DNA from: Bacteroidota bacterium
GTDB taxonomy: Bacteria > Bacteroidota > Bacteroidia > Bacteroidales > JAAUTT01
Direction of reading: 5' to 3'
DNA length: 64,000 nt
Assembly (NCBI GenBank): GCA_023429135.1
Contig: JAEYWD010000115.1
Location: 74,471-138,470 of the forward strand
Shown here: positions 14,245-50,984 of the stretch, piece after piece
Layout: each line of letters begins with the position of its first letter
Numbering within the stretch: position 1 is the first letter of the stretch
The notes under the pieces: generated by a model
What the model was told of the DNA's origin: nothing
Database searches by the model: none
Seen by the model: the letters and a program-made list of their open reading frames with translations, nothing else
Position numbers and translations under genes: made by a program

Positions 14245-14246
14245 AA

Positions 14247-17584: not shown

Positions 17585-19507
17585 TTAAAAACTTTCGAAA
17601 AATTTATCTCCTTTGTCGGTACTTCCCATGTTTACATTTATACCTGAGGCTTGATCCGATGCCGGAATATGCATACGTTGATTATGAACTGGTTTTTTGA
17701 GATTCTTCTGTTGCTTCAGCAATGGTGAAGATTTTACCTGCTTGCCTGTATTGAAGAAACCAATGGTTTCCTTCAGTAGCTCTGCCTGGCTGGCAAGCTC
17801 TTCGGAGCTGGAACTCATTTCTTCGGCAGCGGCCGCATTCTGTTGTGTTACCTGAGTAAACTGAATTACAGCCTTGGTGATCTGTTCCGAACCGGCACGC
17901 TGCTCGTTACTCGAAGCCGCAATTTCTTTTACAAGCTGAGCTGTCTTCTGAATTTCCGGTATTATTTTGTTCATCATACTTCCCGATTCTTCGGTCACCC
18001 TAAGGCTCGATGCCGAAAGTTCGTTAATTTCCACTGCCGCTTTCTGGCTTACCTCAGCCAGTTTCCGCACTTCGGCAGCTACAACGGCAAAGCCTTTACC
18101 CTGTTCTCCGGCACGCGCTGCTTCAATGGCTGCATTAATGGCCAGGATGTCGGTTTTGCCAGCTATATCGTTAATTATTTTGATTTTTTCCGATATCTGT
18201 CTTATGGCCTCCAGGCTTTTCTGAGCGGCTGTATTAACATCAATCATTCCCTGAGCTGAGGTCACCGCAATTTTCTCGGTAGTAATTGAGTTGTCGCTGT
18301 TTTGCTGGATGGTTGAAGCCATTTCTTCTATTGACGACGACACTTCTTCGGCTGATGCCGACTGCTCGTTTGCTCCTTCCGAAATTTGAACTGCAGAGGT
18401 GCTCATTTCATTACTGCTGATGGCTACATTTTCAGCGGCATCCATCACCTGCCCTACAATTTCGCTTAACCGGGCTACCATGTTGGAAAGCGCTCCCATC
18501 AATTCGTCGTTTTCCGAACGTTTGGCAAGGGTAATCGTGAGATCGCCCTGAGCCACCATTTTGGCTTTGGTGATTATTTCGTTAAACGAAATAATAAGAC
18601 TATTGAGGTTATTCTTTAGATTGTTAAAGTCGCCGTTGTAATTATCGGTAATAAGTTCGGGCATATCGCCCTTAGCTATTTTATCAACATAGTTGACGGC
18701 AACATTTAGCGGAGTGATAACTGCATCGAGGGTTTGGTTGATGCCCACCACAATTTCGCGAAACTCAACATTTGTTTCTTCGGCGTTGGCCCTGGTGGTG
18801 AGTTTGCCGGCAACCGCTGAATCAATAAGATTTTTGGTTTGCCCGATAACCGATTTGATAATTTTCTGAATGTTGGCTGAAATTACAAGCCCCAACGTTA
18901 TGGCCAGTATTATTCCGATAACAATCATTACAGTCATCGAAAGGGTTGCCGCAAGTGCCAGGCTCGTATTGTCATCAGATATTTTTTTGCCCGAATCGAC
19001 ATTGTATTGCACAATAAGATCGGTGGCATTCTGCATGGCTTCGTTCGCGTTAAACCAGTCGCCTCTCATAAGCTTGCGGGCATTGTCGTGGTCTTTTGCT
19101 GCAAGAAGCTTCCTGAATTCGGGGAGATATTGGTTGTAATCCGAGCGCGCTTTTTCGAGGGCTTCGATGTTTTTCTTATCGGTTTCGTCCAGAACTGTAG
19201 CCTTTAGCTTTTGTAGGTTTTCAAGAAATGCCTTATCAATATCCTCTATTCTTTTCAGATATGTTTCTGCTTCATTAATACTCTCGGCCATATACGCATC
19301 GCGTATGTTCACCCTTATTCTCTGGAAATTGGTTGCCAGTTCGGTGCAATAACTTAACGATACCGCTACATTTTCATAAAGGTTGGTGTCTGCTTTTTCG
19401 AGTTGGTTCAGGCTGCGTATGGAAAAGATACCGATTACACCTGCGATTAAAGCTACTAAGATGAAACCGGAAAGCAACTTGGTTCTTATTTTTAATCTGT
19501 TAAACAT
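17585..19507 (-). CDS. Methyl-accepting chemotaxis protein (MCP2)
   Basis: 640 aa paralog of MCP1 with the same architecture. The signalling domain is nearly identical at protein level. C-terminus FFESF. It starts 13 nt after the cheW1 stop. Confidence 0.95.
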
Positions 19508-19520
19508 ATTAATGGTTTTA

Positions 19521-19985
19521 TTAGTTAATAGAATTTTCTTTAATTGAACTTAGTTCGGCGTTTGAGAATACCTTTTCTACATTAAGGAGCATAGTAAAAT
19601 GTTTGCCTGTTTTAAAAATACCCTGGAGAAAGTCGGTGTTGAAATTGCTGCTCATGAGGGGCAAGGGCTTGATTTCCTCATCATTCAGCGATATTACATC
19701 TTCAACTTTATCTACAATAGCTCCTAACCTGAAAATGTTTTTGTCGCCGGAAACATCAATAACAATAATGTTGTAGGATGGAGAATCGCTTTTGGTATAA
19801 TTGAAGCGAACTCGGGTGTCGAAAACAGGAAGAACTTCTCCGCGGAAATTAATTATTCCGCTTATAAAAGCCGGAGCATTTGGAACAGGAGTGATATGCC
19901 CGTTTTGCAGTACCTCCAGCACTTTGTTCACATTTACAGCGAAGTTTTCGCCGCAAATGGTAAATGATAAATAGGTGCGAATCAT
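19521..19985 (-). CDS. cheW: Chemotaxis coupling protein CheW (copy 1)
   Basis: 154 aa single CheW-like domain ([45 protein letters not shown]). Confidence 0.9.
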
Positions 19986-20121
19986 ATGAAAGATTTATTT
20001 TATAAGTACAGATTTCGGGAAGAGAATTTTATCCCTGAGATAAGGTTAATAAACCACAGCGGCAGGAGCCGCTGTGGAGATAGAAAAGATCTATAATGAA
20101 AGATTTGATGATTAAAAGAAA

Positions 20122-20147
20122 CTTGGGAATTTCTCCCAAGCTTTTTT
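20122..20147. terminator. Terminator-like hairpin in the cheW1 / ZIP divergent intergenic region
   Basis: CTTGGGA (20122-20128) pairs with TCCCAAG (20134-20140). An A-rich run lies to the left and T6 (20142-20147) to the right. No upstream gene exists for it to terminate on either strand. Confidence 0.45.
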
Positions 20148-20354
20148 AAGTTTATTTTCATTGCCTCTAACGGTTTTTTATTGAATTGAAATTAGTAGAA
20201 AATGATTGCTCATTTGCCATGCAAAAGGGTGGTTTCATCTCATACTAAAGGATGATTGTATGGTCGTACTTAAGGTTTAGTTTGTAATGGAAATGATTTT
20301 TTGTTGAATTTGACGCTTTAGCTTGCAGTCTGTTTATTATTTAAAACTCGTTTT

Positions 20355-21110
20355 ATGTTAAACTGGATTATAGCTGGATTATGGGGGCTCCTTGCCGGCG
20401 GGGCTTTATTGATAGGGGCCATTGTTGGCTACTTTTTTAGAGTGTCATCGCGTATTAGTGCAGGATTTATGGCCTTTGGAAGCGGGGTTCTTATTTCTGC
20501 TCTGGCTTTCGATCTCGTTGAAGAAGCTTTTAAGACCGGGGGAATTATTTCGACAGTTTTGGGCTTTGCTGCTGGTGCCATTATTTTTACGGGAGCAAAT
20601 TATATTTTAACATTAAAAGGAGTTCAGCACAGAAAGCGATCGGGGAACCAGCAACCCGGTAAAGGCGAGGAGGGGAGTGGTTTGGCTCTTGCCATCGGTG
20701 CTTTAATTGATGGCATTCCCGAATCTATTGTTATTGGACTGAGTATGCTTAAAGGCGGATCGGTTAGTATGGTTGCCGTGATTGCAATTTTTCTGTCGAA
20801 TCTTCCCGAAGGACTTTCGAGTGCTGCCGGAATGAAAAAGTCGGGCAGGAAAGCCACTTATATTTTTGGCGTTTGGGGCGCAATTGCTTTTATTTCGGGC
20901 CTGGCTTCCATTGCAGGATTTACTTTATTCGAGAATTTGCCACCGGAAGTTGTTTCTGCTTCCATAGCACTTGCTGCCGGGGCTATCCTCGCAATGATTG
21001 TGGATACCATGATTCCTGAAGCTTTCGCAGAAACACATAATTTCGCCGGTCTGATTACGGTTATTGGGTTTCTGATTGCTTTTTATTTAAGTCAGGTAGC
21101 GGTCCTATAA
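20355..21110 (+). CDS. ZIP-family divalent metal transporter
   Basis: 251 aa polytopic membrane protein with ZIP signatures GIPESIVIGLS and FLSNLPEGLSSA. Confidence 0.85.
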   Translation: MLNWIIAGLWGLLAGGALLIGAIVGYFFRVSSRISAGFMAFGSGVLISALAFDLVEEAFKTGGIISTVLGFAAGAIIFTGANYILTLKGVQHRKRSGNQQPGKGEEGSGLALAIGALIDGIPESIVIGLSMLKGGSVSMVAVIAIFLSNLPEGLSSAAGMKKSGRKATYIFGVWGAIAFISGLASIAGFTLFENLPPEVVSASIALAAGAILAMIVDTMIPEAFAETHNFAGLITVIGFLIAFYLSQVAVL

Positions 21111-21599
21111 AGAATTATTTCTTCCATTCCAACCTCTTTTTAATTTATTCGGGCTGTATACGTAGCTATTGGGAAAAGATAAGTGTGAAATATACTCGTA
21201 TTTTTTTAGTAAGCAATTTTCAGAAATGTGGTTTGGGAATGATAAGTTACTTCAGGAATGATTTTGATTTTTAACTGAATTTTAATTTCATTGGAATTTG
21301 TGAAGTTAAGGTACTCAGGGCTTTTTTTCTTCCGTACAACGATTAGTTTTTACTAAAAATTTATAATTTAGCTCCTGACTGGCAGAACATAATTATACAA
21401 TTCCAGATAGAAGATTCAGATTTACCCGGGAGCCAAAGAGATTTATTGTATAATCCGTTTTTGCAAAAGCGAAGTAAAAATTGTACTTGAATCGTTAATA
21501 AATTAACATGCCTGCAACTCACTTTTTCCAATGTGCGCGTTCTCCCGATGCCGGGCACACTTCCAATTATCCGGTGCTTTGCTATTCAGAAAAATCCCT

Positions 21600-21878
21600 G
21601 GATACATTTTACACATGCAAAACGCTTCCTGGCTCCGGCCAGCCTGCAAATTACACGTGCAAAATACATGCTGGCGCTGGCCACCCCCATATTGAACAAT
21701 GCAAAACCTGCCTGGCTGCAGCCAGAATCAGATTTACCCGTGCAAAATGCTACCTGGCTGCAGCCAGATCGTTATTTACACGTGTAAAATGGCACCTGGC
21801 TTTAGCCAGCTTGGTATTGCACCGTGTAATTTCATCCTGGCTGCAGCCAGCATGGTATTGCACCTCGAGATTTGTATA
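21600..21878. repeat. Tandem array of about 6.5 units of a 41-42-bp repeat carrying two alternating 14-bp palindromes
   Basis: CTGGCTGCAGCCAG-type palindromes sit at 21629, 21671, 21712, 21754, 21796 and 21837 (spacings 42, 41, 42, 42, 41). TTACACGTGCAAAA-type elements lie midway between them; the best copy is TTTACACGTGTAAA at 21775-21788. A degenerate copy lies further left, near 21414. Confidence 0.85.
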
Positions 21879-22002
21879 AAAACCCTTTAAAACCAATAAA
21901 ATGTAATGCCTTTCATCAGGAATTTAACATCATGCTGCCGGGCGGCAGGGTCTTAAGCTCCTGATAACTTTCGAATATTTTAACTCCTAATTTTTTTTAA
22001 TT

Positions 22003-22752
22003 ATGATAGATGCCTTGAATTACAGATTGATTGAAAGCGACCAGTTATTAACTTTTGGAAAAGCTTTCAATCAGATTTTTGCAGGTTTCGACGAAACCCG
22101 CGATCCTTATATTCTCGCTCCTTTTGTAAAAAGATGTGTTACCACCTATACCGAGTTCAGCAAAGCCTTTGAACGCGAAGCTACCAACCCTTTTACAGGA
22201 AAACTCCGCGGCGCCGACTCGCAACGCGATGGTGCCTTCCTCGGTTACCGTAGTTTTATCGAAAGTTGCACTCACGACGATGATTCTGTCGTAAAGGAAG
22301 CTGCCGTGCGGTTACTCGCCGTAATAGTGAAGCATGGCTGGTCGGCACATAGCTTCGGTTATAAAAAGCAAACTGCGGCCATTACAAAAATCATTAACGA
22401 AACCCGCGACTTTTATCTTGCCGATGTTCAAACTGCCGGTGCCACAGCAAAGTTTAACCTGATGGAAACCCGCCAGACAGCTTTCGAAAAACTGCAAAAC
22501 GACAGTGTAACCCGCGAACCTTCGGGTTTACCAACGCTTTTGGAAACACGCCCCAATGTTATCTTCGCCATACGTAAGCTTATAAACGTTGTTGATTGTC
22601 ATTATAGCGAAAAGCCCGACGATGAACAGCTTAAAGGTTATGTGAATGCCATTAACGAGTTGATAACATTAACCATGAGCACCGCCCGTGCTGCGCAAAC
22701 CCGCGAGGAAAACCAAAAGAAAGATACAGGAACAAAGCCGCAGAGCGTTTGA
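22003..22752 (+). CDS. Hypothetical protein (predicted all-helical; possibly a Bacteroidota DUF family)
   Basis: 249 aa ORF with no signal peptide, no TM segment and no catalytic motif that I recognise. The C-terminus is low-complexity and charged. Confidence 0.55.
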   Translation: MIDALNYRLIESDQLLTFGKAFNQIFAGFDETRDPYILAPFVKRCVTTYTEFSKAFEREATNPFTGKLRGADSQRDGAFLGYRSFIESCTHDDDSVVKEAAVRLLAVIVKHGWSAHSFGYKKQTAAITKIINETRDFYLADVQTAGATAKFNLMETRQTAFEKLQNDSVTREPSGLPTLLETRPNVIFAIRKLINVVDCHYSEKPDDEQLKGYVNAINELITLTMSTARAAQTREENQKKDTGTKPQSV

Positions 22753-22758
22753 GTAAAG

Positions 22759-22782
22759 CGTTGTGCAAGCCCGGGCACAACG
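22759..22782 (+). terminator. Hairpin immediately after the hypothetical gene
   Basis: 8-bp stem CGTTGTGC (22759-22766) pairs with GCACAACG (22775-22782) around an 8-nt loop. No clear T-run follows. Confidence 0.35.
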
Positions 22783-23033
22783 CCCTAAATACAACAACCT
22801 CTACAAGGTTCTGGAAATCATTAGTCTCATTTAACCACAAATATGCAACCTCTACAAGGTTATTTTTGCCTTTTACACAAGCTCTGTAGTCCGACGAAGG
22901 GGAAATATATTTTTAATTCTGTTATTGTTGTCAATGTGATAAAACTCGTGTTTTTTACCACACACTCATAAAAAAACAGGAAATATTTCGTTGATGTTTG
23001 TTATTATAAATAAGTTTAGGACATGAATTTACT

Positions 23034-23041
23034 TATATTTG
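23034..23041 (+). promoter_or_regulatory. Candidate Bacteroidota -7 box upstream of kaiC
   Basis: TATATTTG matches TAnnTTTG and lies 67 nt upstream of the kaiC ATG. Confidence 0.35.
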
Positions 23042-23107
23042 TTTGTGAGACGATAAAAATGTAACCCGGAATGAAGTACATGCTTCCGTATTTTTTCTGA
23101 ATATATT

Positions 23108-24796
23108 ATGAATATAACCCGAAACAAACTACTTAAAGCTCCCACGGGAATACCCGGATTTGATGAAATTACCGGAGGAGGATTGCCGCAGGGCCGACCA
23201 ACCCTTGTATGTGGTGATGCCGGCTGCGGGAAAACACTTTTTTCCATGGAATTTCTTGTGCGTGGAGCTATGGAATTCAACGAACCAGGAGTATTTATGG
23301 CTTTTGAGGAAACTGAACAGGAACTTACAACCAACGTTTCTTCGCTTGGCTACGATCTCAACGATTTGGTTGCACGCAAATTATTGCTGCTCGACCATGT
23401 TCATGTTGAACGCAGCGAGATTGAAGAAACCGGCGAATACGACCTCGAAGGACTTTTTATCCGCCTTAATTTGGCAATAGACTCCATAAATGCAAAAAGA
23501 GTGGTACTGGATACCATTGAGTCTCTTTTTGCAGGTCTACCCAACGAGGCAATTCTGCGTGCCGAATTACGCCGTTTGTTCAGATGGCTTAAGGATAAGG
23601 GAGTTACCGTAATTATTACAGGCGAAAGAGGGAACGGAACCTACACACGCCATGGCCTCGAAGAGTATGTTTCCGATTGCGTAATCGTACTGGATCATCG
23701 TGTAACCAATCAAAGTTCTACCCGCAGGCTGCGGGTTGTTAAATACCGCGGATCAGCCCATGGTACCAACGAATATCCTTTCCTTATCGACAATACGGGT
23801 TTCTCAGTCCTTCCTATAACTTCGCTGGGTCTCGATCATCAGGTATCGTCCGAAAGAATTTCTTCCGGAATACCCGAGCTTGATGAAATGATGGGAGGCG
23901 AAGGATATTATGTTGGAAGCAGTGTTCTGGCTTCAGGTACCGCAGGTACCGGCAAAAGCAGCCTGGCTGCCCATCTGGTTCATGCCACATGTTCCCGGGG
24001 CGAAAAGGTTGTTTACTTTTCATTTGAAGAGTCTCCCAAACAAATTATGCGGAATATGCTTACAATCGGAATTGATATGGAGCCGTTTGTATCGGGAGGC
24101 CTGTTAAAATTTCATTCCACAAGACCTACTTTTTTTGGATTGGAGATGCACCTTACCGCAATGTATAAGGAAATACGCGATTTTAAGCCGTCGGTTGTAG
24201 TTGTGGATCCATTGAACAGTTTTGTTACTGGCGATAATGAGCTTGAAGCTAAGTCAGTTTCGATGCGACTGATCGATTATCTGAAAATGAATAAAATTAC
24301 AGGATTCTTTACAAGTCTTACCGCTGGAGGAAGTAACCTGGAAAGTACGGATATTTTCGTGTCATCATTAATCGATACCTGGATTCTTTTGCGCGATATA
24401 GAATCTGGAGGCGAGCGTAACCGTGGTATATACATTCTTAAATCGCGGGGTATGGCTCATTCGAACCAGATACGTGAGTTTATAGTTTCCAACAAAGGCA
24501 TTAAACTCGAGGATGTTTATGTAGGAATGGAAGGCGTGCTCACCGGTAGTGCCCGTATAGCCCAGGAATCGAGGGATGCTGCCGAGCATGAACTTTTGCA
24601 GCAGGAAATTGAACAGAAAAAATTTGTACTGGACCGGAAGCGACAGGCACTTTTGGCACAAATAGAATCCATGAAAACTGAATTTGAAGCTGAAGAATCG
24701 GAAATATTAAAAGGTATTGAATCAGAAAACAAGCAACTCGAGCGTTTTCATGAAAACAGAAAGCGAATGGCTCAAAGCCGCGGTGGTGAAAAATAA
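23108..24796 (+). CDS. kaiC: Circadian-clock-type ATPase/autokinase KaiC homolog with C-terminal extension
   Basis: 562 aa with duplicated RecA/KaiC domains. Walker A motifs GDAGCGKT and GTAGTGKS. Catalytic EE pairs MAFEE and [17 protein letters not shown] aligns by eye with cyanobacterial HISTITDTIILL. Also [16 protein letters not shown]. The tail is charged and heptad-like. Confidence 0.93.
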
Positions 24797-24807
24797 AAAT
24801 TTGTACA

Positions 24808-25128
24808 ATGATAAATCAAGATGACTTTAACGATAATCTAACTGAAGATGCCTGGATATTGAGGTTATATGTGGCAGGACAAACTCCCAAATGTTTACTT
24901 GCCTTTGCAAATTTGAAGAAGATTTGCGAAACTCAATTAAAAGGTAAATATAAAATAGAAGTGATTGACCTTCTTGTAAATCCTCAACTCAGCAAGGACG
25001 ATCAGATTCTTGCTATTCCTACACTGGTTCGAAAGTTACCCGTTCCCGTCAGGAAAATAATTGGAGATCTTTCGAATACCGAAAAGGTATTGGTGGGTTT
25101 GGACCTTATGCACAATAGAAATAATTAA
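24808..25128 (+). CDS. kaiB: KaiB (copy 1)
   Basis: 106 aa. Motifs [75 protein letters not shown]. Confidence 0.93.
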
Positions 25129-25132
25129 AAGT

Positions 25133-25474
25133 ATGGATGAATCGGTAACACCTCGGTTTTCGACTGATGACTTTGAAGACCCGGCTAGAAAAACAGATGG
25201 TGAAAAATTTATACTCCGGCTGTATGTTACCGGCTCTACACCTCAATCTATCAGGGCTATAGGAAATATTCAAAAGATTTGCGAAGAAAACCTTCCCGGA
25301 AATTATAACCTGGAGGTTATTAATTTATACGAAAACCCCGAAATGGCTAAAACCGAACAAATAATAGCAGCGCCTACCCTCGTTAAACAATTGCCTTTGC
25401 CTTTGCGGCGTATTATTGGCGATCTTTCCGATTCTGAAAAGGTTTTGGTGGGTCTCGGCCTCAGGGTTATGTAA
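25133..25474 (+). CDS. kaiB: KaiB (copy 2)
   Basis: 113 aa from the ATG at 25133. Motifs LRLYVTGSTPQSIRAIGNIQKICE, LEVINLYENPEMAKTEQIIAAPTLVKQLPLPLRRIIGDLSDSEKVLVGLGL. The listed longer ORF start (25061) overlaps kaiB1. Confidence 0.9.
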   Translation: MDESVTPRFSTDDFEDPARKTDGEKFILRLYVTGSTPQSIRAIGNIQKICEENLPGNYNLEVINLYENPEMAKTEQIIAAPTLVKQLPLPLRRIIGDLSDSEKVLVGLGLRVM

Positions 25475-25489
25475 CATAAAAAATTAAGT

Positions 25490-26782
25490 ATGCCGGAATC
25501 TATCCAGCAAGATGTTTTGCTCGAAAACGAACAATTGAAGGCCCGTCTGGCCGAAACAGAAGCCACACTCGAAGCCATAAGGAACGGGGAGGTGGACGCT
25601 ATTGTCGTTTCGGGAAAGGACGGAGATAAAATATTTACACTTACCTCAGCCGAAACTCCATACCGTATTATTATCGAAGAAATGGAGGAAGGAGCCGTTA
25701 CCGTATCCGACGAGGGCATTATTCTTTTCTGTAACCGCAGGTTCTCGCAAATGATTGGTCAGCCAATGAGTCAGATCATTGGAAAGAGATATGTTGAGTT
25801 TCTCGAAATATGCGAGCATGAAAAATTTGGTATTATGCTCCGCGAAGCCATCAACGGAAGAATAAAAGATGAAATTACCCGATTGGATAAATATGGCGAG
25901 TTGTTTTACTTTCATATTTCTATGTGTGCCCTTCCTGAAGGTATGCTTGGTAAAGCTTGTATTATTGTAACCGATATCACCGAATTAAAAAAACACCAGC
26001 AAAATCTCGAATCCCTCGTAATGGAACGAACTGCCGAAATTAATAAGGCAAATCTTGAGCTGGGTGAATTGAATTCTACTAAGGATAAGTTGTTTTCTAT
26101 TATTGCGCACGATTTGCGGGGGCCGTTTACAAGCTTACTTGGGTTCACCGATCTGCTAATCGAAAATCTGGATAAATACGATCGTCAAAAATTCGAACAA
26201 ATTGTAATGCATATAAGCAAGGCTGCTAAAAATGCTTTCTCGTTGCTCGAAAATCTTTTATTGTGGGCCCGGTCGCAAAACAATCAAATGCTATTTACAC
26301 CCCGAACAACCAACTTGTTTAATGTTACCCGTGATGTTATTCTTAGCTTAACATCACTTGGTTCTATTAAAAATATCAGGATGATTAACAAGGTTCCCGG
26401 AGAATTAAAAGCTTATGCCGATATAAATATGCTAACTGCTATTCTCAGGAATCTGATATCGAATGCAATAAAGTTCAGTAATTCTGGCGGTGAGGTCGAA
26501 ATTGAAGCTCTTTCAACCGGGTATGCAGTTGAAATTTCGATTAAAGACAATGGCATAGGAATGAACGAAGAAATTAGAAACAGTCTGTTTCAAACCATAA
26601 GCAATAATACACGTGCAGGTACGGCAAATGAAAAAGGTACCGGACTTGGATTGATGATTTGTAAGGAGTTTATCGACAAACATCATGGGAAAATCTGGCT
26701 GGAGAGCGAAGTTGGCAAAGGAACCAAATTTACTTTCAGTCTGCCTTTTACAGTCACTTCGACAAGCTCAGTGACCGACTAG
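25490..26782 (+). CDS. PAS-domain sensor histidine kinase (Kai-associated output-kinase candidate)
   Basis: 430 aa. N-terminal coiled coil, a PAS region (GAVTVSDEGIILFCNRRFSQMIG ... VTDITELK), HisKA H-box FSIIAHDLRGPFTSLLGF, and HATPase boxes ISNAIKFS, DNGIGM, GTGLGLMICK. It starts 15 nt after kaiB2. Confidence 0.9.
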   Translation: MPESIQQDVLLENEQLKARLAETEATLEAIRNGEVDAIVVSGKDGDKIFTLTSAETPYRIIIEEMEEGAVTVSDEGIILFCNRRFSQMIGQPMSQIIGKRYVEFLEICEHEKFGIMLREAINGRIKDEITRLDKYGELFYFHISMCALPEGMLGKACIIVTDITELKKHQQNLESLVMERTAEINKANLELGELNSTKDKLFSIIAHDLRGPFTSLLGFTDLLIENLDKYDRQKFEQIVMHISKAAKNAFSLLENLLLWARSQNNQMLFTPRTTNLFNVTRDVILSLTSLGSIKNIRMINKVPGELKAYADINMLTAILRNLISNAIKFSNSGGEVEIEALSTGYAVEISIKDNGIGMNEEIRNSLFQTISNNTRAGTANEKGTGLGLMICKEFIDKHHGKIWLESEVGKGTKFTFSLPFTVTSTSSVTD

Positions 26783-27249
26783 AGGCTCAGTGACCGAAAC
26801 GTGGTCGTTAAGCTTGTCGAAACGTAAAATTGAAGAAAACACTATTGCCCGTTAGAATATTGGTTCCATTATCGCAATAAAATGGTGGTTCTATTTGTAA
26901 ACCGGAACCAGCACCGGGTATAAGCTTTTTAAGAGGTATAATAATAACTGATAATTGGGCTCTATGTTCGATTGAGGCGTTGGAGTTATAAATTATTCAG
27001 TCTTTAATATCACCATAATTTTATCCCGACTGTTTATTTTATTGAATTAGGCACATGATGAATAGAAATGGTTTTCAATAAACCCAGAGGGTTTAAATGT
27101 TTATAGCTAATTAGAGGAAGAAATATTCGACCCCGGCTGGGGGCGCACTAAAATCCTACTCTCATGTTTCTATAAACATTTGATACCTCCGGTATCATTC
27201 AGCATTAATTAAGAGCCAAATTCAATTATTTTATTAAAAGGCTATTTTA

Positions 27250-27963
27250 ATGACTGCATTCTCCGAACCGGCACAATTCAGATTATTAAAGTTTTGCTCC
27301 TGGTTTATGTTCAATAATAACACCAAGGATGCAATCAAAATCTTTAAAAACGATCTGGCAAAAATTTCGTCGCTTGATGCATTAAAGGTATTCACCTGGA
27401 TGGCGCAAAGCGATTATAACATTCAAACAGTTTCAAATAAAATTGATAAGCTTACAAGTATTTTTTTCAAACCTCTGAAAAATGATTTGAAACCTTTTCC
27501 CAGCAAACATTTTCTGATTTCTTATCATTACGAAAATTTTGTTTTGCTGAAACGGATGGAGGAAATGAGGCCAAAGTTGAGAGAGATATTAAAGAACCAT
27601 GATCCCTCCATGTTATCCGAATTTCAGAAGTTTGCGGATACTTTGAAGAATCATGTCATGCAATTTCAAAGGTTGGAGGTTCATGTTTTCCCGCTTTTTG
27701 AAAGAGTACTTCCGCAATATGGTGCATTTTATCGTTTCGAAAGGATGTTTCACAACGATTTTAAGCAAATGTTAAGGGATATTGAATACTTGTTTACCAT
27801 ACAGCCATTTAATTATGCGAATTTTAACCAGTTGGTAGGATGTTTGTATTTTCGTCTAAGTTTAAGGCTTTATCGCGAAAATCTCATTCTTTTTCCGGTG
27901 GGCTGTCAGTTTATTCATTCCAGATTTTACCAGTTAACCTTCGTAAAGGAGTATTTTGAATGA
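27250..27963 (+). CDS. Hypothetical helical protein (weak hemerythrin/DUF438-like resemblance)
   Basis: 237 aa. His/Glu-containing helical motifs (HVMQFQRLEVHVFPLFERV, FERMFHNDFKQM) resemble the HHE-type H..xE..lFP pattern. The assignment is tentative. Confidence 0.45.
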   Translation: MTAFSEPAQFRLLKFCSWFMFNNNTKDAIKIFKNDLAKISSLDALKVFTWMAQSDYNIQTVSNKIDKLTSIFFKPLKNDLKPFPSKHFLISYHYENFVLLKRMEEMRPKLREILKNHDPSMLSEFQKFADTLKNHVMQFQRLEVHVFPLFERVLPQYGAFYRFERMFHNDFKQMLRDIEYLFTIQPFNYANFNQLVGCLYFRLSLRLYRENLILFPVGCQFIHSRFYQLTFVKEYFE

Positions 27964-28063
27964 TAAATGAAAAGAGAGGATCGTAGTTTTTGCGATCTTC
28001 CCAGATCGAGTTGACTTACAAATTCAGCTCAGCGTTTTAGCTTATAAACTAAGTTGTACGCTA

Positions 28064-28084
28064 GGCGGAATTTGCAATTCCGCC
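28064..28084. terminator. Hairpin between convergent genes (27250..27963 and mcp3)
   Basis: Perfect 9-bp stem GGCGGAATT / AATTCCGCC with loop TGC. The flanks are only moderately T/A-rich. Confidence 0.4.
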
Positions 28085-28132
28085 ATAAATTGTCTTTTCA
28101 CACAACCTCTTTTTAGATATTCTGTGGAGCGC

Positions 28133-31039
28133 TTAGAAACTTTCGAACAAGTTATCGCTCTGCCCCATTTTGTCCATTTCTATGTTGATGCCGGAAGTTT
28201 TTCCTGTATGTTTATCGTCTTTTGCCGCAAACCCTTGCCTTTTTGCGGATTTATGAGCAGGCTTAACAGGTTGGGACATGTTAAGTTTCCGGCCGGTATT
28301 GAAGAAACTGATGGTTTCTTTTAACTGTTCGGCCTGGCTGGCCAGTTCTTCGGAGCTGGAACTCATCTCTTCAGCCGCAGCCGCATTTTGCTGTGTTACC
28401 TGAGTGAATTGAATAACGGCTTTCGTTATCTGTTCCGATCCAAGGCGTTGCTCATTGCTCGAGGCTGCAATTTCCTTTACCAGTTCGGCCGTTTTTTGAA
28501 TTTCGGGAATTATTTTTTGCATCATGTCACCCGATTCTTCCGTCGTTTTTAAACTGGACGCTGATAACTCGTTAATTTCAACAGCAGCTTTCTGGCTTAC
28601 TTCGGCAAGTTTGCGCACCTCGGCTGCAACTACGGCAAAACCTTTGCCCTGTTCGCCCGCCCGGGCTGCTTCAATAGCTGCATTAATAGCCAGAATGTCC
28701 GTTTTACCGGCAATATCGTTAATGATTTTAATTTTTTCCGATATCTGTTTCATGGCATCCAGGCTTCTTTTAACTGATATATTAAAATCCAGCATGCTTT
28801 TGGCCGATTCAATAGCAATTTTTTCAGTGATAGCAGAATTGTCGCTGTTCTGCTGAATTGTCGATGCCATCTCTTCTATTGACGACGAAACTTCCTCTGC
28901 CGAAGCCGATTGCTCGCTGGCTCCTTCCGAAATCTGGATGGAGGATCGGCTCATTTCGTTACTGCTGATGGCTACATTTTCGGCAGCTTCCATTACCTGA
29001 CCAACAATTTCGCTTAAGCGCGAAACCATATCGGAAAGAGCACCCATTAAATCGTCATTTTCTGAGCGTCGGGCCAGGGTAACAGTAAGGTCTCCCTGTG
29101 CAATCATCTTGGCTTTTGTTATTATTTCGTTAAAAGCATGGATAAGGCTGTTGAGATTATTTTTAATATTATTGAAATCGCCGTTGTAGTTGTCGGTGAT
29201 GAGCTGAGGCATGTCGCCTTTCGAAATTCTTTCGACATAAAGGGCGGCAACGTTTAATGGTCCAATAACGGCATCGAGCGTGCTGTTAACACCTTCAACA
29301 ATTTTACGGTAATCTCCCAGATGCCTTTCTGCATTGGCTCTGGTTTCCAGGCGGCCTTCCAAAGCGGCTTTTACAAGCATGTTTGCATCGTCCGAGAGCC
29401 TATTAATGGCTGCTACCGAAACATTTACAGCATGATTTATCGTGTCGAACATTTTTTGCGCTTCCAAAGTATCGTTGTCGGCCTCTTCGGTTTTAAGGTC
29501 AAACATCAGGTCGCCTTTGGAAAGGCTTGTTAAACCTTCAGTTAGCTTTACAGCTTCATTGGTCTGATATTTTTCAATTTTTTCGGCTTTCCTCATCGCT
29601 AGCTTTATGGCTGTTTGATCGCTCACTACCTCAAAGGCTCCGATAACACTACCCTCTTTGTTTCGGAGTGGAACAGCAGAATACTGAATTTCAAGTTCCA
29701 GATTCCCGGGACGTGCTACAGTTTCGCTTTTTTGGTTGGCATTGGTTTGTATAGATTTGGCGCAGGCACAGTTTTGGGTTTTGCAGTCACCTGTTCTGAA
29801 GTGATCGTAACATTTGGTTCCTATTAATTGGTGCTGTATTTTATTGCCTACCTGGGCGCCTATATGGTTGATGTAATTTATTTCGAAATTATTGTTGATA
29901 AGCATTGCTGGTGTTGGCATTGCGTCCAGTAGGCCAACAAGAGTGTTGAGGGTGTCGTTTACTCCATCAACAATTTTTTTGAAATCGCCCGAATGCCTTT
30001 CTGCATTGGCGCGAGTATGAAGTTTTCCTTCAATGGCAGCACTACTGAGCATGTTTGCATCACTAATAAGCATTTTAACAGCCTCGATGCATTTGTTGAG
30101 GCTGTTTTTTATTTCGTTGAAATCGCCATTGTAATTGTCAGTAATTTTATCGGGGATATCACCGTTCGAAATTCGGTCGACATATTCGGCTGCCACATTT
30201 AATGGCTCAATTACAGCATCCAGAGTTTTGTTGAATCCGGAAATAATTTCCCGGAACTCCTCGTTTGTTTCCTCAATTTTTGCCCTTGTTGATAACTTCC
30301 CTTCGAGTGCTGCTTCTGTCAGTTTTTTGGTTTGTGCAATGATGGATTGTATTATTTTCTGAATGTTCGCTGAAATAAATATTCCGGATAGGATGGCTAT
30401 GATCAGTCCTGCAATTATCGTCAGAATTATAAAGCTTTGAGATGAAGTTCCTGAGGATACGGTTTCATCTACCATTTTACCGGTGTTCTTGATGTTGTTG
30501 GATTTTAGCAGCTCAAAAGTTTCACCCATTGTATTTGAAATTGGTACCATTAGGGCGTAAGTCGCTTCATATTCCGATTTGAGTGTTTGAAGGGAATTAC
30601 TATCTGCAGTGGTCATTTGAGCAATTAACTGGTCAAGAGTGATGTAGATATTACGCCAATCTTTGTATTCTGCTCGTATTTTGGCCTGAAGTCTCAATCC
30701 TTCGGCGCTCTGACGGGGAATGGATTCGGATAATTTCCAAAATTTGTCTACTTTTTCCCAGGAAGCAAGTCTTTTTTGTTGAATGTTTTGAAGTTCCTTT
30801 CTGAATTGCTGGATGTCTTTCTGGTTAAAGGCAAGCATTACCTCAAGCGTTTGCGAACGGATAACCATTCGTTCTTCATTGATCCCTGAAAATGCTTCCA
30901 TGGATGGGATTCGGTTGTCGCGGATGTTTAAAGTGCTGTTGTTTTGGTTTTTAATTGAGTAATAGCCAATAAGACCGATTATGCCAGCAATTATTGCTGT
31001 TACAGTAAAACCGGTCATTATTTTTGTTCTGATTTTCAT
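28133..31039 (-). CDS. Methyl-accepting chemotaxis protein with extended multi-module cytoplasmic region and Cys-rich PAS-like insert (MCP3)
   Basis: 968 aa. TM1, periplasmic helical region, TM2, then repeated HAMP-like modules flanking a PAS-like domain with [17 protein letters not shown]. The signalling domain is the same as in MCP1/2. C-terminus LFESF. Confidence 0.93.
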
Positions 31040-31115
31040 TTTTATTTTTGTTTACATTTTTGTTAACGGATACTCTGTTGAGAATTGCAGGACAGTTTTG
31101 GGCTGTTGAGCCGTT

Positions 31116-31155
31116 AAACCAGCTCGGGGTAACTGCTGTTGCCCCAGGCTGGTTT
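31116..31155 (-). terminator. Imperfect long hairpin between mcp4 and mcp3 (terminator/attenuator or processing site candidate)
   Basis: AAACCAGCTCGGGGTAAC pairs with GTTGCCCCAGGCTGGTTT, about 15 of 18 positions paired around loop TGCT. No T-run follows on the minus strand. Confidence 0.3.
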
Positions 31156-31204
31156 GGATGTGGTAGGAACAGAATTCTCTATTCCTGATCGCCTCTTTCG
31201 AAGT

Positions 31205-34072
31205 TTAGAAGTTTTCGAACATTTTGTCGTCCTTGTCTATACCATTGAGGTCGACATTAACTCCCACGGCATGATCGGTCTGCCGGGCAGTTTTCCCCTG
31301 CAAACTTCCTCTTTTGCCTGCTTTGTGAGTAGGCTTCATCGGTTGGGTTATTTTGATCTGCCGTCCGGTGTTGAAGAAACTGATGGTTTCCTTCAGCAAC
31401 TCGGCCTGGCTTGCCAGTTCTTCGGAACTGGAGCTCATTTCCTCTGCTGCTGCTGCATTTTGCTGGGTTACCTGTGTAAACTGAATCACAGCTTTTGTGA
31501 TCTGTTCCGAACCCATTCTTTGCTCGTTGCTCGATGCTGCAATTTCCTTCACCAATTGAGCCGTCTTCTGGATTTCGGGAATTATCTTCATCATCATGCT
31601 TCCCGACTCCTCGGTAACGCGCAGACTTGAAGCCGACAATTCGTTAATTTCAACCGCTGCTTTTTGGCTTACTTCTGCAAGCTTACGCACTTCGGCAGCT
31701 ACCACCGCAAAGCCTTTGCCCTGTTCGCCGGCACGCGCTGCTTCAATTGCTGCATTAATGGCAAGAATGTCAGTTTTTCCGGCAATGTCGTTGATGATTT
31801 TGATTTTTTCCGATATCTGACGCATGGCTTCAAGGCTTTTTTGGGCAGCGGTGTTTACATCCATCATTCCCTGAGCCGAAGCAACAGCAATCTTTTCGGT
31901 CGTAATGGAGTTGTCGCTGTTCTGCTGGATTGTGGACGACATTTCCTCAATTGATGAGGATACTTCTTCTGCCGATGCCGATTGCTCGCTTGCACCTTCC
32001 GAGATCTGAACTGCCGAGGTGCTCATTTCGTTACTACTGGTAGCTACATTCTGAGCGGCTTCCATTACCTGGCTAACAATTTCGCTCAATCGGGCAACCA
32101 TTTCGGAGAGTGCTCCCATTAACTCATCATTTTCTGAACGCTTGGCAAGGGTAATGGTTAAGTCCCCCTGAGCCACCATTTTGGCTTTGGTTATTATTTC
32201 GTTGAAAGCATTGATGAGGCTGTTAAGATTATTTTTGATGCTGTTAAAGTCGCCGTTGTAATTGTCGGTTATCAAATCCGGCATATCACCTTTGGCTATT
32301 TTATCCACATACATGGCGGCCACGTTCAATGGACCAATTACTGCATCTAGCGTATTATTCACTCCTTCAACAATTTTGCGGAAATCGCCCTGATGACGCG
32401 AAGCATCTGCGCGGGTAGCGAGCTTCCCTTCTACGGCAGCGTTAGAGAGGAGGGTTGCATCGCTGACAAGTTCACTCACAGCTTCCTTAACTTGTTGTAA
32501 GCTGTTGTTAATTCTTTCGAACTGTTTCTTTACTTCCTGGGTATGTTCATCGGCCTCTCTGATGTTGAGGTTGAATTCCAGACTTCCTTTTGAAAGATGC
32601 CTGAGGTTGCCTTCTATTCTTTCAACCTCAGATTTTGTATAATCACTTACTCTGATTATTGATGTTAAATCGGTTACAACTTCAACAAAGCCGGTATTCT
32701 CGCCTTTTGCATTTTTTAGGTAAGCGGTATCCTGTTTACAACTCATTCCACACCAATCGAAGAAACTTTGATTAGTACCTTTTAATAATTGCTTTATTCC
32801 GCAATTTGCTGTGTTGCATATATTTGCTCCGGCATTACTGCATGCTTTTCCATAACCCGATTCACGGTCTTTTATAACGCCCTGATCAATCATCAGCCTC
32901 TCAAATTCTTTATTCATGTAGGTCCACGTCATATTTTCGTCGGTTACATGAATCGGGAATGGGACAGCATCAATGATGGATTCGTACCACACAGTTTTAT
33001 CTACAACCGTATCCAGGGTGGCATTAACTCCTTCTACAGTTTTACGAAATTCACCCTGATGATTCTGGGCATTGGCTCTGGTAGAGAATTTACCCTCTAT
33101 TGCTGCATTGGAAAGCATCTTGGAGTCTGTAACAAGTAGGTTTATAGCATCGATACACTGATTGAGGTTGCTCTTTATCTCATTGAAGTCGCCATTGTAA
33201 TTGTCGGTGATTTTCTCGGGTATGTTACCTTTGGAAATGCGGTCCACGTATTCGGCAGCTACATTGAGGGGCCCAATAACGGCATCGAGGGTCTTATTGA
33301 TACCTACCACAATTTCGCGGAATTCTTCGTTGGTGTCCTCGGTTTTGGCGCGCGTGGCAAGACGACCTGCTACGGCAGCATCAACCAGATCTTTGGTTTG
33401 TTTAATAACCGATTTGATGATGTTCTGAATGTTGGTGGCAATAATGAAACCGAGCACTATAGCTGCTAGCAGCGAAAGCGCCACCAAAGCAATCATGAAC
33501 GTTGTTGCGTTATCTGCTAAAGCTGTGTTTCCATCGGAAGTTTCTTTGGCCAGGGTTAGCTTACTTTGCTGCAGCTCATCCAGAGCTTTCTGGCAAACAT
33601 CATTATCCGATTTCATTTTGCCGTTCATAATCATTACCGCGCCATTAATGTTGTCATCCTTCAACATTTTTTTGATGTCAGGTACCGAAGACACGTAAGC
33701 GTCAAAAGATTCGTTCACTTTTTTAACAATTTCTTTACCTGCTTCAGTCAGCGTTGTTGCTTCTACCTTTGCTTCCGAATTTCGGAAAGTTTTGCTCAGC
33801 TCTTCAATCCGGGCCAGTTTTGCTTCACGATCTTCGTTATTTGTGGCATAAACGGCATCGCGCACATTTACTCTTACTCGCTGAAACGAAGTGGACATGT
33901 CCATCATATCGGCCATTGGTACTGTAATTTTTTCGTATAATTTTTTATCGGCAGCATCCAGTTGTTTTATTCTGGAAATGCCCATGTAACCTATTACACC
34001 TGCCAATGAAGCCACTAATAGAAAGCTTACCAGTAATTTTGTGCGAATTTTCATGTTTTTAACCCAGTTCAT
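31205..34072 (-). CDS. Methyl-accepting chemotaxis protein with extended multi-module cytoplasmic region and Cys-rich PAS-like insert (MCP4)
   Basis: 955 aa with the same layout as MCP3. The insert carries CSNAGANICNTANCGIKQ...FFDWCGMSCKQD. C-terminus MFENF. Confidence 0.93.
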   Translation of the reverse strand: MNWVKNMKIRTKLLVSFLLVASLAGVIGYMGISRIKQLDAADKKLYEKITVPMADMMDMSTSFQRVRVNVRDAVYATNNEDREAKLARIEELSKTFRNSEAKVEATTLTEAGKEIVKKVNESFDAYVSSVPDIKKMLKDDNINGAVMIMNGKMKSDNDVCQKALDELQQSKLTLAKETSDGNTALADNATTFMIALVALSLLAAIVLGFIIATNIQNIIKSVIKQTKDLVDAAVAGRLATRAKTEDTNEEFREIVVGINKTLDAVIGPLNVAAEYVDRISKGNIPEKITDNYNGDFNEIKSNLNQCIDAINLLVTDSKMLSNAAIEGKFSTRANAQNHQGEFRKTVEGVNATLDTVVDKTVWYESIIDAVPFPIHVTDENMTWTYMNKEFERLMIDQGVIKDRESGYGKACSNAGANICNTANCGIKQLLKGTNQSFFDWCGMSCKQDTAYLKNAKGENTGFVEVVTDLTSIIRVSDYTKSEVERIEGNLRHLSKGSLEFNLNIREADEHTQEVKKQFERINNSLQQVKEAVSELVSDATLLSNAAVEGKLATRADASRHQGDFRKIVEGVNNTLDAVIGPLNVAAMYVDKIAKGDMPDLITDNYNGDFNSIKNNLNSLINAFNEIITKAKMVAQGDLTITLAKRSENDELMGALSEMVARLSEIVSQVMEAAQNVATSSNEMSTSAVQISEGASEQSASAEEVSSSIEEMSSTIQQNSDNSITTEKIAVASAQGMMDVNTAAQKSLEAMRQISEKIKIINDIAGKTDILAINAAIEAARAGEQGKGFAVVAAEVRKLAEVSQKAAVEINELSASSLRVTEESGSMMMKIIPEIQKTAQLVKEIAASSNEQRMGSEQITKAVIQFTQVTQQNAAAAEEMSSSSEELASQAELLKETISFFNTGRQIKITQPMKPTHKAGKRGSLQGKTARQTDHAVGVNVDLNGIDKDDKMFENF

Positions 34073-34163
34073 AATTTTTCTTTTAATAATTATACTTTAT
34101 AATTCCCTTCTTCACTTTGCTCTTGTTCCGGTTAACATTTTAAATTCTTAGGCATAACGAGTT

Positions 34164-34754: not shown

Positions 34755-34837
34755 CCGATAATAAATTTAAAGGTTGTGGTTTAGCATCACCGCATGTTGA
34801 TTGATGATTTTTAGTTGGGACATGCAGGTGCCTTAAT

Positions 34838-35443: not shown

Positions 35444-35447
35444 TAAA

Positions 35448-35936: not shown

Positions 35937-35955
35937 AGTTTTAATGTATTAAAGG

Positions 35956-50978: not shown

Positions 50979-50984
50979 AAAACA

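Follow-up and report, generated by a model that had tools for sequence, protein, structure and literature searches.

A KaiBC-type cassette between chemosensory genes in one Bacteroidales clade: probably two independent modules

Layout of the locus

The analysed stretch of DNA (64,000 nucleotides; the window) carries a kai cassette spanning 23108-26782 on the + strand, flanked by mcp1-mcp2-cheW1 on one side and by mcp3-mcp4-MBL-cheR-cheW2-cheA-mcp5 on the other, both on the - strand (Table 1). The gene calls agreed with the original prediction in this arrangement and in its distances, 3123 bp from the cheW1 start to the kaiC start and 1351 bp from the stop of the kinase gene to that of mcp3. 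The spacers hold the ZIP-like gene, the repeat array and the two hypothetical genes listed before (DUF6261 and a 237-aa ORF), but the remnant of a Mac gene had been overlooked.

Table 1 Features of the kai-che locus (window coordinates)
Feature	Position	Strand	Evidence
REC-PAS-HisKA_3-type kinase, CheS3-like	12802-14244	+	Pfam Response_reg, PAS, HATPase_c
REC-LuxR (NarL-type) response regulator	14247-14903	+	Pfam Response_reg, GerE
MCP1 (4HB-HAMP-MCP signalling domain)	15195-17117	-	Pfam
MCP2, MCP1 paralog	17585-19507	-	Pfam; ortholog 93% identical in L163, 85% in L174
CheW1	19521-19985	-	Pfam CheW 4.9e-29
cheW1 leader, conserved, terminator-like hairpins	19986-20280		hairpins 20054-20077 and 20119-20143
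ZIP/ZupT-like membrane protein	20355-21110	+	Pfam Zip 6e-4 (weak); NCBIfam ZupT 5e-11, below cutoff
Scar of deleted Kai receiver gene (putative)	21128-21311		blastn, aligned with L162 3741-3928, 87% identity
Lineage-specific 1.7-kb insertion	21312-23013		holds repeat array and DUF6261
DUF6261 gene	22003-22752	+	Pfam 9e-19
KaiC, double-domain, R. sphaeroides type, C-terminal extension	23108-24796	+	Pfam KaiC 1.9e-106, two stretches
KaiB1	24808-25128	+	Pfam KaiB 3e-25; NCBIfam NF006798 115.6 bits, cutoff 110
KaiB2, second KaiB paralog, N-terminal extension	25133-25474	+	Pfam KaiB 9.5e-25
Kai-associated PAS-HisKA-HATPase histidine kinase	25490-26782	+	Pfam
Mac/hexapeptide acetyltransferase pseudogene remnant	26825-26933	-	tblastn 89% identity over 36 aa
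237-aa ORF, weak hemerythrin-like match	27250-27963	+	Pfam Hemerythrin 2e-4, below cutoff
MCP3 (4HB, HAMP arrays, PAS, MCP signalling domain)	28133-31039	-	Pfam
MCP4	31205-34072	-	Pfam
MBL-fold (ODP-like) protein	34164-34754	-	Pfam Lactamase_B 7.6e-20, ODP 6.9e-7
CheR (SAM-binding domain only)	34838-35443	-	Pfam CheR 1.5e-35
CheW2	35448-35936	-	Pfam
CheA (Hpt, dimerisation, HATPase, CheW-like domains; no REC)	35956-38007	-	Pfam
MCP5	38191-40422	-	Pfam

Homology detected by blastn stopped at 20277-20280 in L162, L163 and L174 and was picked up at 20306, inside the ZIP gene, in L175; judged from these alignments, rearrangements have repeatedly had their breakpoint at position 20280. The ZIP-like gene was 91% identical in L175, and the gene distribution marks it as clade-ancestral and lost in L162 and L163. 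The 1.7-kb insertion was missing in L162, L163 and L175; its tandem repeat array (unit of about 42 bp, ~21608-21873) contains the 14-bp palindrome CTGGCTGCAGCCAG. A 123-aa ORF at 21508-21879 is probably not a gene, as it corresponds to the translated array. The Mac gene was intact in L162, L163 and L175, and with its flank the remnant covered 26825-27105 in blastn. For the 237-aa ORF, by the same kind of comparison clade-ancestral, an ortholog with 57% identity was present in L175, and in L168, where the gene is mostly deleted, only the 3' end was retained.

The Kai cassette and its receiver gene

Window KaiC matched NCBIfam NF006799 with 731 bits (cutoff 408) and aligned over its full length with R. 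sphaeroides KaiC (PDB 8dba, E 3e-200), residues 490-562 included, whereas alignments with cyanobacterial KaiCs stopped at about residue 487. The Ser-Ser pair was present in this alignment (VSSLIDTW in the window, LSSLMDGW in 8dba). Sequence comparison places KaiC with the Rhodobacter sphaeroides type. The predicted hourglass was borne out, the module being of the kind without KaiA. KaiB2 scored 101 bits in NCBIfam and thus stayed below the cutoff of 110; a second kaiB was also found in most related loci. All four kai genes are intact ORFs with catalytic motifs kept, and their dN/dS values of 0.06-0.18 (0.07-0.18 for the kinase) indicate purifying selection.

Gene order was compared in a KaiC-centred sample of loci from 80 other species (KaiC 60-71% identical), which spans Bacteroidota, Proteobacteria, Planctomycetota, Acidobacteriota and Archaea. 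The four-gene cassette, with kaiB and the kinase gene after kaiC, recurred in 62 of the 63 loci that could be evaluated, in bacteria as well as archaea, and the assignment of the kinase to the Kai module was thereby upheld. The kaiC-kaiB-kaiB-kinase cassette is an already known, self-contained kind of hourglass.

The kinase had also been described as lacking an adjacent cognate regulator. This is true in the window, but only because a single-domain receiver gene was, as the alignments indicate, cleanly and recently deleted in this lineage; it is kept next to kaiC in L162 and L175 and missing from the window and L163. The scar, joined 17 bp past the ZIP stop codon, is homologous to the sequence upstream of the receiver gene of L162, and the coding sequence itself (L162 3371-3739) had no blastn counterpart in the window. 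Among 66 single-domain RECs, the L162 and L175 receivers grouped with the RECs found 3' in the sister cassettes (94/100 bootstrap); their bit scores were 66-74 against the latter and at most 44 against CheY-like RECs beside cheA. Phylogeny and score assign the receiver to the Kai module, as an ortholog of the cassette 3' REC of the sister lineages, where the order is kaiC-kaiB-kaiB-HK-REC (L164, L169/170, L172) or the cassette comes without REC (L166). Within 6 kb downstream of kaiB and on the same strand, distant cassettes had a REC-containing ORF in 28 of 61 evaluable loci, single-domain in only four. The window kinase is intact, yet without a visible partner; a relocated copy of the receiver was not found in the protein database.

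In the cyanobacterial KaiABC-SasA-RpaA system a histidine kinase reads the state of KaiC and phosphorylates a response regulator. The scheme proposed for the window is alike in that a histidine kinase would read KaiC and then act on a response regulator. Unlike that system, however, the window has no KaiA, its kinase carries a PAS domain instead of the KaiB-like domain that SasA has at its N-terminus (in NCBIfam, PRK09303 was matched along the kinase core only and below cutoff), and in the Kai cassettes the partner is a single-domain REC, not an OmpR-type protein like RpaA. A KaiBC hourglass was reportedly described in Rhodopseudomonas palustris by Ma et al. in 2016. With the KaiBC hourglasses of R. 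sphaeroides and R. palustris the window shares the double-domain KaiC with its C-terminal extension of about 50 aa, the Ser-Ser phosphosite pair, an adjacent kaiB, no visible kaiA and a PAS histidine kinase beside the operon. It differs from both of these systems in the two kaiB paralogs after kaiC and in its host, a non-phototrophic Bacteroidales MAG, so that a light-driven change in ATP is unlikely as cue; timekeeping in this host is putative. The kinase gene lies downstream within the same operon, whereas in R. rubrum PAS kinases were reported ahead of kaiBC clusters.

Homology with the R. sphaeroides KaiBC hourglass, for which a mechanism has been worked out (Pitsawong et al. 2023, PMC10076222; PDB 8DBA, 8FWI, 8FWJ), suggests that KaiC would autophosphorylate on the Ser-Ser pair without KaiA, via the C-terminal coiled-coil extension. 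Once the ATP/ADP ratio drops, KaiB binding would bring about KaiC dephosphorylation, giving an hourglass or an energy-state switch. The adjacent PAS kinase would read the KaiC state and pass it to the single-domain receiver whose gene accompanies the cassette in relatives. De Luca et al. 2011 (PMC3164672) defined a 'first kaiC context', kaiC-kaiB preceding either a histidine kinase or else a GGDEF/EAL protein, and read the kaiC-kaiB-kinase order as a Kai output pathway. The window has this order, with the signalling kinase directly downstream; unlike in that context, kaiB is duplicated, close relatives encode a single-domain receiver partner, and in one clade the cassette is embedded in a che island.

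The chemosensory island and the flanking receiver pair

The che island comprises five MCPs, two CheW, CheA, CheR and the MBL-fold protein, with neither CheY nor CheB. CheW1 orthologs shared 91-92% identity in L162 and L163, but 75% in L175, CheW2 was about 70% identical to the CheW1 orthologs, and identities of MCP3 were 93% in L168 and 83% in L175. An MBL-fold gene between cheR and mcp was also found in L083, L095, L097 and L107 and is typical of such che clusters.

A search for receiver domains within 15195-40422 returned none, and to this extent the che units indeed lack an obvious response regulator; however, a REC-kinase/REC-LuxR pair (12802-14903) lies 291 bp past the mcp1 stop and is a candidate output. 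The best NCBIfam kinase matches of its first member were of the NarX/NarQ/LiaS/UhpB type. In the relative L085 a compact, co-oriented cluster encodes a REC-PAS-HisKA_3 kinase, a REC-LuxR protein, CheA, CheW and an MCP. There, the ortholog of the window kinase (41% identity) lies immediately upstream of cheA, with the counterpart of the REC-LuxR gene (58%) between the two; in L175 the two genes were 90% and 96% identical to those of the window. Because the same pair is fused into the cheA operon of L085, it is probably the che output, the kinase probably being the receiver of CheA signalling and the REC-LuxR protein probably the transcriptional output of the island.

The che module is probably a chemosensory island of the non-motility type. 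In Rhodospirillum centenum Che3, the hybrid kinase CheS3, which controls CheY3, is phosphorylated by CheA3 on an inhibitory REC (PMC4436063); Che3-CrdSA of Myxococcus xanthus is a related chemosensory system (PMC3147164). As in Che3 systems, the che cluster has no motility CheY and, judged by synteny, developmental or transcriptional output rather than motor control, and CheA phosphoryl groups are likely accepted by a REC-PAS-kinase whose gene lies with those for che, a wiring suggested by synteny only. By analogy with CheA3-CheS3 and from the synteny in the relative, CheA would signal to the REC of the 12802-14244 kinase, which in turn would control the REC-LuxR protein. The window kinase differs from CheS3 in having one REC instead of two and in being HisKA_3-type, not HWE; unlike in Che3 systems, the regulator is a REC-LuxR DNA-binding protein and not a single-domain CheY3 or NtrC homolog, CheB is missing and an MBL-fold protein is present. 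The kai cassette lies inside what appears to be a single pathway, whose two ends are the REC pair and cheA, and this counts against two independent modules.

Origin and meaning of the kai-che adjacency

All co-occurrence counts are based on individual loci. MCP, CheW or CheA genes occurred within 10 kb of kai in none of the 80 KaiC-centred loci (1.13 Mb of flanks searched), and none of the 79 CheA-relative loci had a Kai match. The closest CheA relative (L083, 75%) has cheA-cheW-cheR-MBL-mcp and then an unrelated hybrid kinase. In the four sister lineages (KaiC 76-79%) no che genes were found near kai, and the cassette contexts were unrelated. Outside one clade, synteny thus speaks against the claim that a Kai timer gates or resets the che pathway. 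The sandwich is common to the five lineages of that clade (KaiC 84-90%), the che flanks being shared by L168 (KaiC 90%), L163 (88%), L162 (87%) and L175/L176 (84%). In L175 the whole order reads APP1, LuxR, REC-HK, REC-LuxR, GNAT, mcp, cheW, ZIP, RR, kaiCBB-HK, Mac, Hr, mcp3. The expected conservation of the adjacency was therefore seen as inheritance among five related lineages but not beyond them.

Within the clade the adjacency persisted to synonymous saturation (dS 1.3-2.0 against L175) and outlasted no fewer than six gains and losses of local genes. Its survival fits selection keeping the modules together, without being evidence for selection. Synteny extended equally to unrelated neighbours, for instance APP1 and the LuxR gene; the adjacency therefore matches what is expected from one rearrangement followed by vertical inheritance. 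From gene content, no component is demonstrably common to the Kai and che modules. We consider it likely that these are two independent modules which came to lie side by side through one ancestral rearrangement and were inherited within one Bacteroidales clade. Overall, the original prediction is partly supported.

A related possibility concerns origin only and fits alongside the two-module reading: the segment that runs from ZIP through the 237-aa ORF (~20281-28000) might be a horizontally acquired island inserted into a contiguous che cluster. Its genes are all on the + strand except for the Mac remnant, opposite to both che units, the che clusters of the outgroups L085 and L083 are compact and without kai, the recurrent breakpoint lies at its edge, and a KaiC 60-71% identical across phyla and domains suggests frequent transfer. 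Such an insertion nevertheless seems rather unlikely, as the composition is not anomalous (GC 0.36-0.44, similar to the flanks), ORF lists and Pfam scans contained no integrase, no flanking repeats were seen, and no relative with an empty site was recovered among the compared loci.

It is improbable that the locus forms one functional island in which the output of a Kai timer or energy-state sensor enters the chemosensory pathway, either by the partner-less Kai kinase phosphorylating the REC of the CheS3-like kinase or by the Kai single-domain receiver serving as the missing CheY. The sandwich was kept in five lineages although spacer genes turn over, the only single-domain REC of the ancestral island, which has no CheY, sits between cheW1 and kaiC, having shifted in this clade from the cassette 3' end to the cheW side, and the unpartnered kinase is under purifying selection. 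Against this stand, in addition to the absence of adjacency outside the clade and the equal synteny of unrelated flanks, the grouping of the REC with those of Kai cassettes rather than che-linked CheYs and its loss in the window and L163, where both modules are still intact. Moreover, between the REC position and cheW1 lies a terminator-like hairpin, and the Kai kinase belongs to the HisKA type, while the LuxR-type regulator has its own neighbouring HisKA_3-type kinase. A literature search found no published Kai-Che link.

That the window cassette is a decaying relic, its signalling ended by the receiver deletion and the genes heading for loss, is very improbable: the deletion, the untraced receiver and an indel-rich region with its Mac pseudogene would fit, but L166 also lacks an adjacent REC, fewer than half of the evaluable distant cassettes have a REC-containing ORF downstream, and the intact kai genes of the window and L163, both without the receiver gene, gave dN/dS values of 0.06-0.14.

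Kai and Che proteins encoded in the window

The kai cassette lies on the strand opposite to the two che units that flank it. The gene map and the distances of the original prediction were correct: the starts of cheW1 and kaiC are 3123 bp apart, and the stops of the kinase that follows kaiB2 (the Kai kinase) and of mcp3 are 1351 bp apart. Pfam matches to families typical of Bacteroidota (DUF5686, SusD, CarboxypepD_reg) were also found in the window.

Coordinates of genes and sequence elements of the kai-che locus
Feature	Position	Strand	Basis or remark
REC-PAS-kinase and REC-LuxR regulator	12802-14903		291 bp from mcp1 stop
REC-PAS-kinase of this pair	12802-14244		
REC-LuxR regulator of this pair	14247-14903		
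mcp1	15195-17117	-	Pfam
mcp2	17585-19507	-	Pfam
cheW1	19521-19985	-	Pfam
Terminator-like hairpin	20054-20077		
ZIP-like gene	stop at 21110		spacer
Homolog of REC-upstream sequence	21128-21311		
Gained sequence	21312-23013		
Repeat array, ~42-bp units	21608-21873		spacer
DUF6261 gene			spacer
CAACCTCTACAAGGTT, two copies	22795-22810, 22846-22861		
kaiC	23108-24796	+	Pfam
kaiB1	24808-25128	+	Pfam
kaiB2	25133-25474	+	Pfam
PAS-HisKA-HATPase kinase (Kai kinase)	25490-26782	+	Pfam
Mac remnant	26825-26933		
237-aa ORF			spacer; weak hemerythrin match
mcp3, mcp4, MBL-fold gene, cheR, cheW2, cheA, mcp5	28133-40422	-	Pfam
MBL-fold gene	34164-34754		
cheR	34838-35443		
Second signalling cluster	48309-53386		
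Single-domain REC of this cluster	50985-51410		

KaiC has two RecA-like domains (PF06745 matched in two stretches), and the Walker A motif and catalytic glutamates of each domain are visible in the alignment. The protein scored 731 bits against NCBIfam NF006799 (cutoff 408) and aligned from one end to the other with Rhodobacter sphaeroides KaiC (KaiC_RS, PDB 8dba; E 3e-200; residues 10-562 to 7-558); cyanobacterial KaiCs aligned only to about residue 487 and are without the ~70 C-terminal residues covered here. The C-terminal extension of ~50 residues is of the R. sphaeroides/KaiC2 type, its coiled coil being predicted by homology; in KaiC_RS, the coiled coil makes autophosphorylation independent of KaiA (PMC10076222). 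No KaiA-family match was obtained among ~50 window ORFs scanned with Pfam. A Ser-Ser pair is present in CII, where VSSLIDTW stands opposite LSSLMDGW at the phosphosite position of KaiC_RS (S413/S414; PMC10076222). Two KaiB proteins are encoded next to kaiC; the NCBIfam cutoff was exceeded by KaiB1 and narrowly missed by KaiB2.

At a low ATP/ADP ratio, KaiB promotes dephosphorylation of KaiC_RS, resulting in an hourglass (PMC10076222), and judged by sequence the mechanism of the window KaiC would be the same. The order kaiC-kaiB-kinase has previously been described as a Kai output context in non-cyanobacteria (PMC3164672). As in context 1 of De Luca 2011, a signalling kinase lies directly downstream of kaiB on the same strand in the window, and this kinase presumably reads the state of KaiC/KaiB.

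CheA contains Hpt, dimerisation, HATPase and CheW-like domains (Pfam) and is accompanied by CheW and by MCPs with long HAMP_2 arrays of two to three matched stretches. CheR (201 aa) comprises the SAM-binding domain only, which is present at 122.9 bits; the protein scored under the NCBIfam CheR cutoff. CheB, CheY, CheZ, CheC and CheD were not seen in the 64-kb window, and a domain scan of positions 15195-40422 detected no receiver domain.

The MBL-fold protein of the che island (196 aa) matched Pfam Lactamase_B and, more weakly, the ODP family. Its gene also lies between cheR and mcp in L083 (7855-8454), L095, L097 and L107, which are loci carrying CheA relatives; the protein may be a metal or oxygen sensor. 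The second signalling cluster encodes a multi-PAS histidine kinase of 889 aa, a single-domain REC of 141 aa and a REC-PAS-HisKA-HATPase-REC hybrid of 653 aa.

Genomic neighbourhoods and the Kai receiver

A KaiC scan with one genome per species yielded 80 loci (KaiC 60-71% identical) that span Bacteroidota, Proteobacteria, Planctomycetota, Acidobacteriota, Chloroflexota and Archaea (Methanoperedens, Bathyarchaeota), and all island proteins were searched against them by tblastn. Sixty-three loci were evaluable, and in 62 of these kaiB, usually in two copies, and a kinase follow kaiC. Such identity across phyla and Archaea, together with the same kaiB-kaiB-kinase order, suggests that the cassette as a whole has spread widely by horizontal transfer.

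MCP, CheW and CheA were found by tblastn in none of the 80 KaiC loci, searched over 1.13 Mb of flanks that in 40 of them reach 5 kb or more upstream and 7 kb or more downstream, and Kai genes were found in none of 79 metagenome loci carrying CheA relatives. Nearer KaiC relatives were taken from the protein database. In the four sister lineages among these (L164, L166, L169/170, L172; KaiC 76-79%) the cassette is situated among unrelated genes, e.g. BlaR/BlaI, SDR and tRNA synthetase genes; che genes adjoin it in none of the four, and a single-domain REC gene lies directly 3' of the kinase in three. Thus, the adjacency of Kai and Che does not extend to distant genomes, and the kaiC-kaiB-kaiB-PAS-kinase cassette is documented as an autonomous module common to bacterial phyla and archaea.

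Three variants were noted: L082 has two tandem kaiC-kaiB cassettes (7351-11973), L030 has four consecutive kaiB-like genes downstream of kaiC (6727-8185), and the NCBI protein P0001 (954 aa) spans the whole KaiC at 63% identity with ~390 residues extra.

In close relatives the adjacency was confirmed, and che genes lie beside the cassette in five lineages: L168, L163, L162 and L175/L176 (GCA_021779665.1). In L168 (KaiC 90%) mcp3 (93%) comes next after the kinase, separated from it by no more than a 3' remnant of the 237-aa ORF; in L163 (KaiC 88%) mcp2-cheW1 is divergent from kaiC at a distance of 738 bp; and in L162 (KaiC 87%) the genes divergent from kaiC are mcp, cheW1 and one for a 122-aa REC. 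The complete order was seen in L175/L176 (KaiC 84%, CheW1 75%), namely APP1, LuxR, REC-kinase (90%), REC-LuxR (96%), GNAT, mcp, cheW, ZIP (91%), REC (125 aa), kaiC-kaiB-kaiB-kinase, Mac acetyltransferase, Hr-like ORF and mcp3 (83%). The kaiB-kinase order is kept in every locus of this clade and of the sister lineages. The unrelated flanking genes APP1 and LuxR are equally syntenic across the clade, so the kai-che adjacency is no better conserved than its background.

DNA alignments gave the ancestral order as cheW(-), ZIP(+), REC(-), kaiC to kinase (+), Mac(-), Hr(+), mcp3(-). In the window the coding sequence of REC has disappeared, and its upstream region is retained shortly after the ZIP stop; the window also gained 1.7 kb and had Mac cut down to a remnant. 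ZIP was lost in L162, ZIP and REC in L163, and Mac with most of the Hr ORF in L168. In L174 (CheW1 84%), considered as a candidate relative without kai, homology ends at a common breakpoint, beyond which there are just 480 bp of unrelated sequence.

We placed the REC proteins of L162 and L175 in a neighbour-joining tree built from the 66 non-redundant single-domain RECs of all loci, where they clustered (94/100 bootstrap) with the RECs encoded 3' in the sister cassettes. Their bit scores were 66-74 to the sister-cassette RECs versus at most 44 to the CheY-like RECs beside cheA. Both results argue that this REC is the predicted partner of the Kai kinase, moved to the 5' side in the sharing clade, and not a CheY. 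In the 64-kb window tblastn with the Kai receivers found no such gene, and the single-domain REC of the second signalling cluster was absent from its matches; in the protein database, a word-based search of limited sensitivity for a relocated copy gave no types besides those of L175 and L162. The partner of the cassette in one group of Bacteroidales would be a single-domain receiver, encoded by a gene that changes its place and is readily lost.

The Kai kinase indeed has no adjacent regulator in the window, as originally proposed, but this orphan state is shown to be a recent deletion of a gene kept in L162 and L175. As to the che units, which were likewise described as having no obvious response regulator, the units themselves contain none, but the REC-PAS-kinase/REC-LuxR pair lies just past the mcp1 stop. 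The comparison shows that the two missing regulators side by side are an artefact of the recent deletion and of the coordinate limits of the earlier reading.

The kai genes are under purifying selection (dN/dS 0.06-0.18), also between the two REC-less lineages, the window and L163. Against L162 and L163, dS of the Kai kinase gene was 0.31-0.34, ~3x below the values for kaiC and kaiB in these comparisons (0.76-1.23), which suggests that the kinase gene has recently recombined among the three lineages.

Outputs of the modules and possible cross-talk

In the closest CheA relative, L083 (CheA 75%, CheW2 83%, CheR 82%), the order is cheA-cheW-cheR-MBL-mcp, and the gene that comes next encodes a PAS-GAF hybrid kinase that is unrelated. 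L085 (CheA 56%) has a compact, co-oriented cluster of a REC-PAS-HisKA_3 kinase, REC-LuxR, cheA, cheW and mcp, and in L095, L097, L098, L107 and L115 a REC or REC-LuxR gene comes right after cheA, with cheR-MBL-mcp kept. These arrangements give the che island a plausible output of its own, for which the REC-PAS-kinase/REC-LuxR pair, assigned solely by synteny with L085, is a plausible candidate. The signal would pass from CheA to the REC-kinase and on to REC-LuxR, similar to Che3 of R. centenum, where the hybrid kinase CheS3 has an inhibitory REC that CheA3 phosphorylates (PMC4436063). This points to a CheS3-like output for a CheY-less Bacteroidales chemosensory island.

NarL-type kinase/regulator pairs were also observed directly upstream of kaiC in two Ferruginibacter MAGs and one Prolixibacteraceae MAG (L024, 1726-3780; L034, 1309-3370; L003, 3489-5456), with a single-domain REC upstream of kaiC as well in L024 and L034. 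They were rejected as orthologs of the window pair, which would have tied Kai to Che through a common pair; they share with it only 25-35% identity in generic kinase/REC domains, whereas identity of the L085 pair to it reaches 41% and 58% over the full length.

Of the single functional Kai-Che island in the original prediction, the anatomy and the local synteny stand and the coupling does not. Outside one clade the kai and che modules are shown to be separable everywhere, each with its own candidate output, and the locus is a new instance of systems already known; the original interpretation as a whole is only partly supported. The opposite strands speak against a shared part or co-transcription, as does the sole candidate REC, which groups with Kai-cassette RECs and is missing in the window. 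It is improbable that in the sharing clade a Kai hourglass or energy switch serves as input to a transcription-controlling chemosensory pathway, even though the Kai kinase has no visible partner and the cassette lies between two ends of one che pathway. Such cross-talk could take two routes: the Kai kinase, receiver-less in the window and L163 lineages, might phosphorylate the REC of the CheS3-like kinase, or the single-domain Kai receiver might bind to the CheA/CheW array in place of a CheY. In both cases chemoreceptor signalling would be gated by metabolic time or energy state. A literature search for a link between Kai proteins and chemosensory arrays found none; were the coupling true, a Kai timer would for the first time be seen to feed such an array, and there would be a handle on the role of KaiBC in non-phototrophs.

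Repeats and small elements near the cassette

The repeat array consists of at least five units, each carrying the 14-bp palindrome CTGGCTGCAGCCAG, and is unique within the window (8 matches observed versus 0.06 expected). It sits with DUF6261 in the lineage-specific 1.7-kb insertion, and a 123-aa ORF spanning it is probably spurious. Hairpins lie upstream of cheW1 (20054-20143), and a terminator-like one of these lies between the Kai receiver position and cheW1. The sigma-70 scan, whose model does not cover Bacteroidota promoters, gave 19 sites versus 22 expected. Two exact copies of CAACCTCTACAAGGTT, 51 bp apart and ~250-300 bp upstream of kaiC, lie within the portion not common to L162; the element holds an internal inverted repeat, AACCT-N5-AGGTT, and the pair may be a binding site for a regulator.
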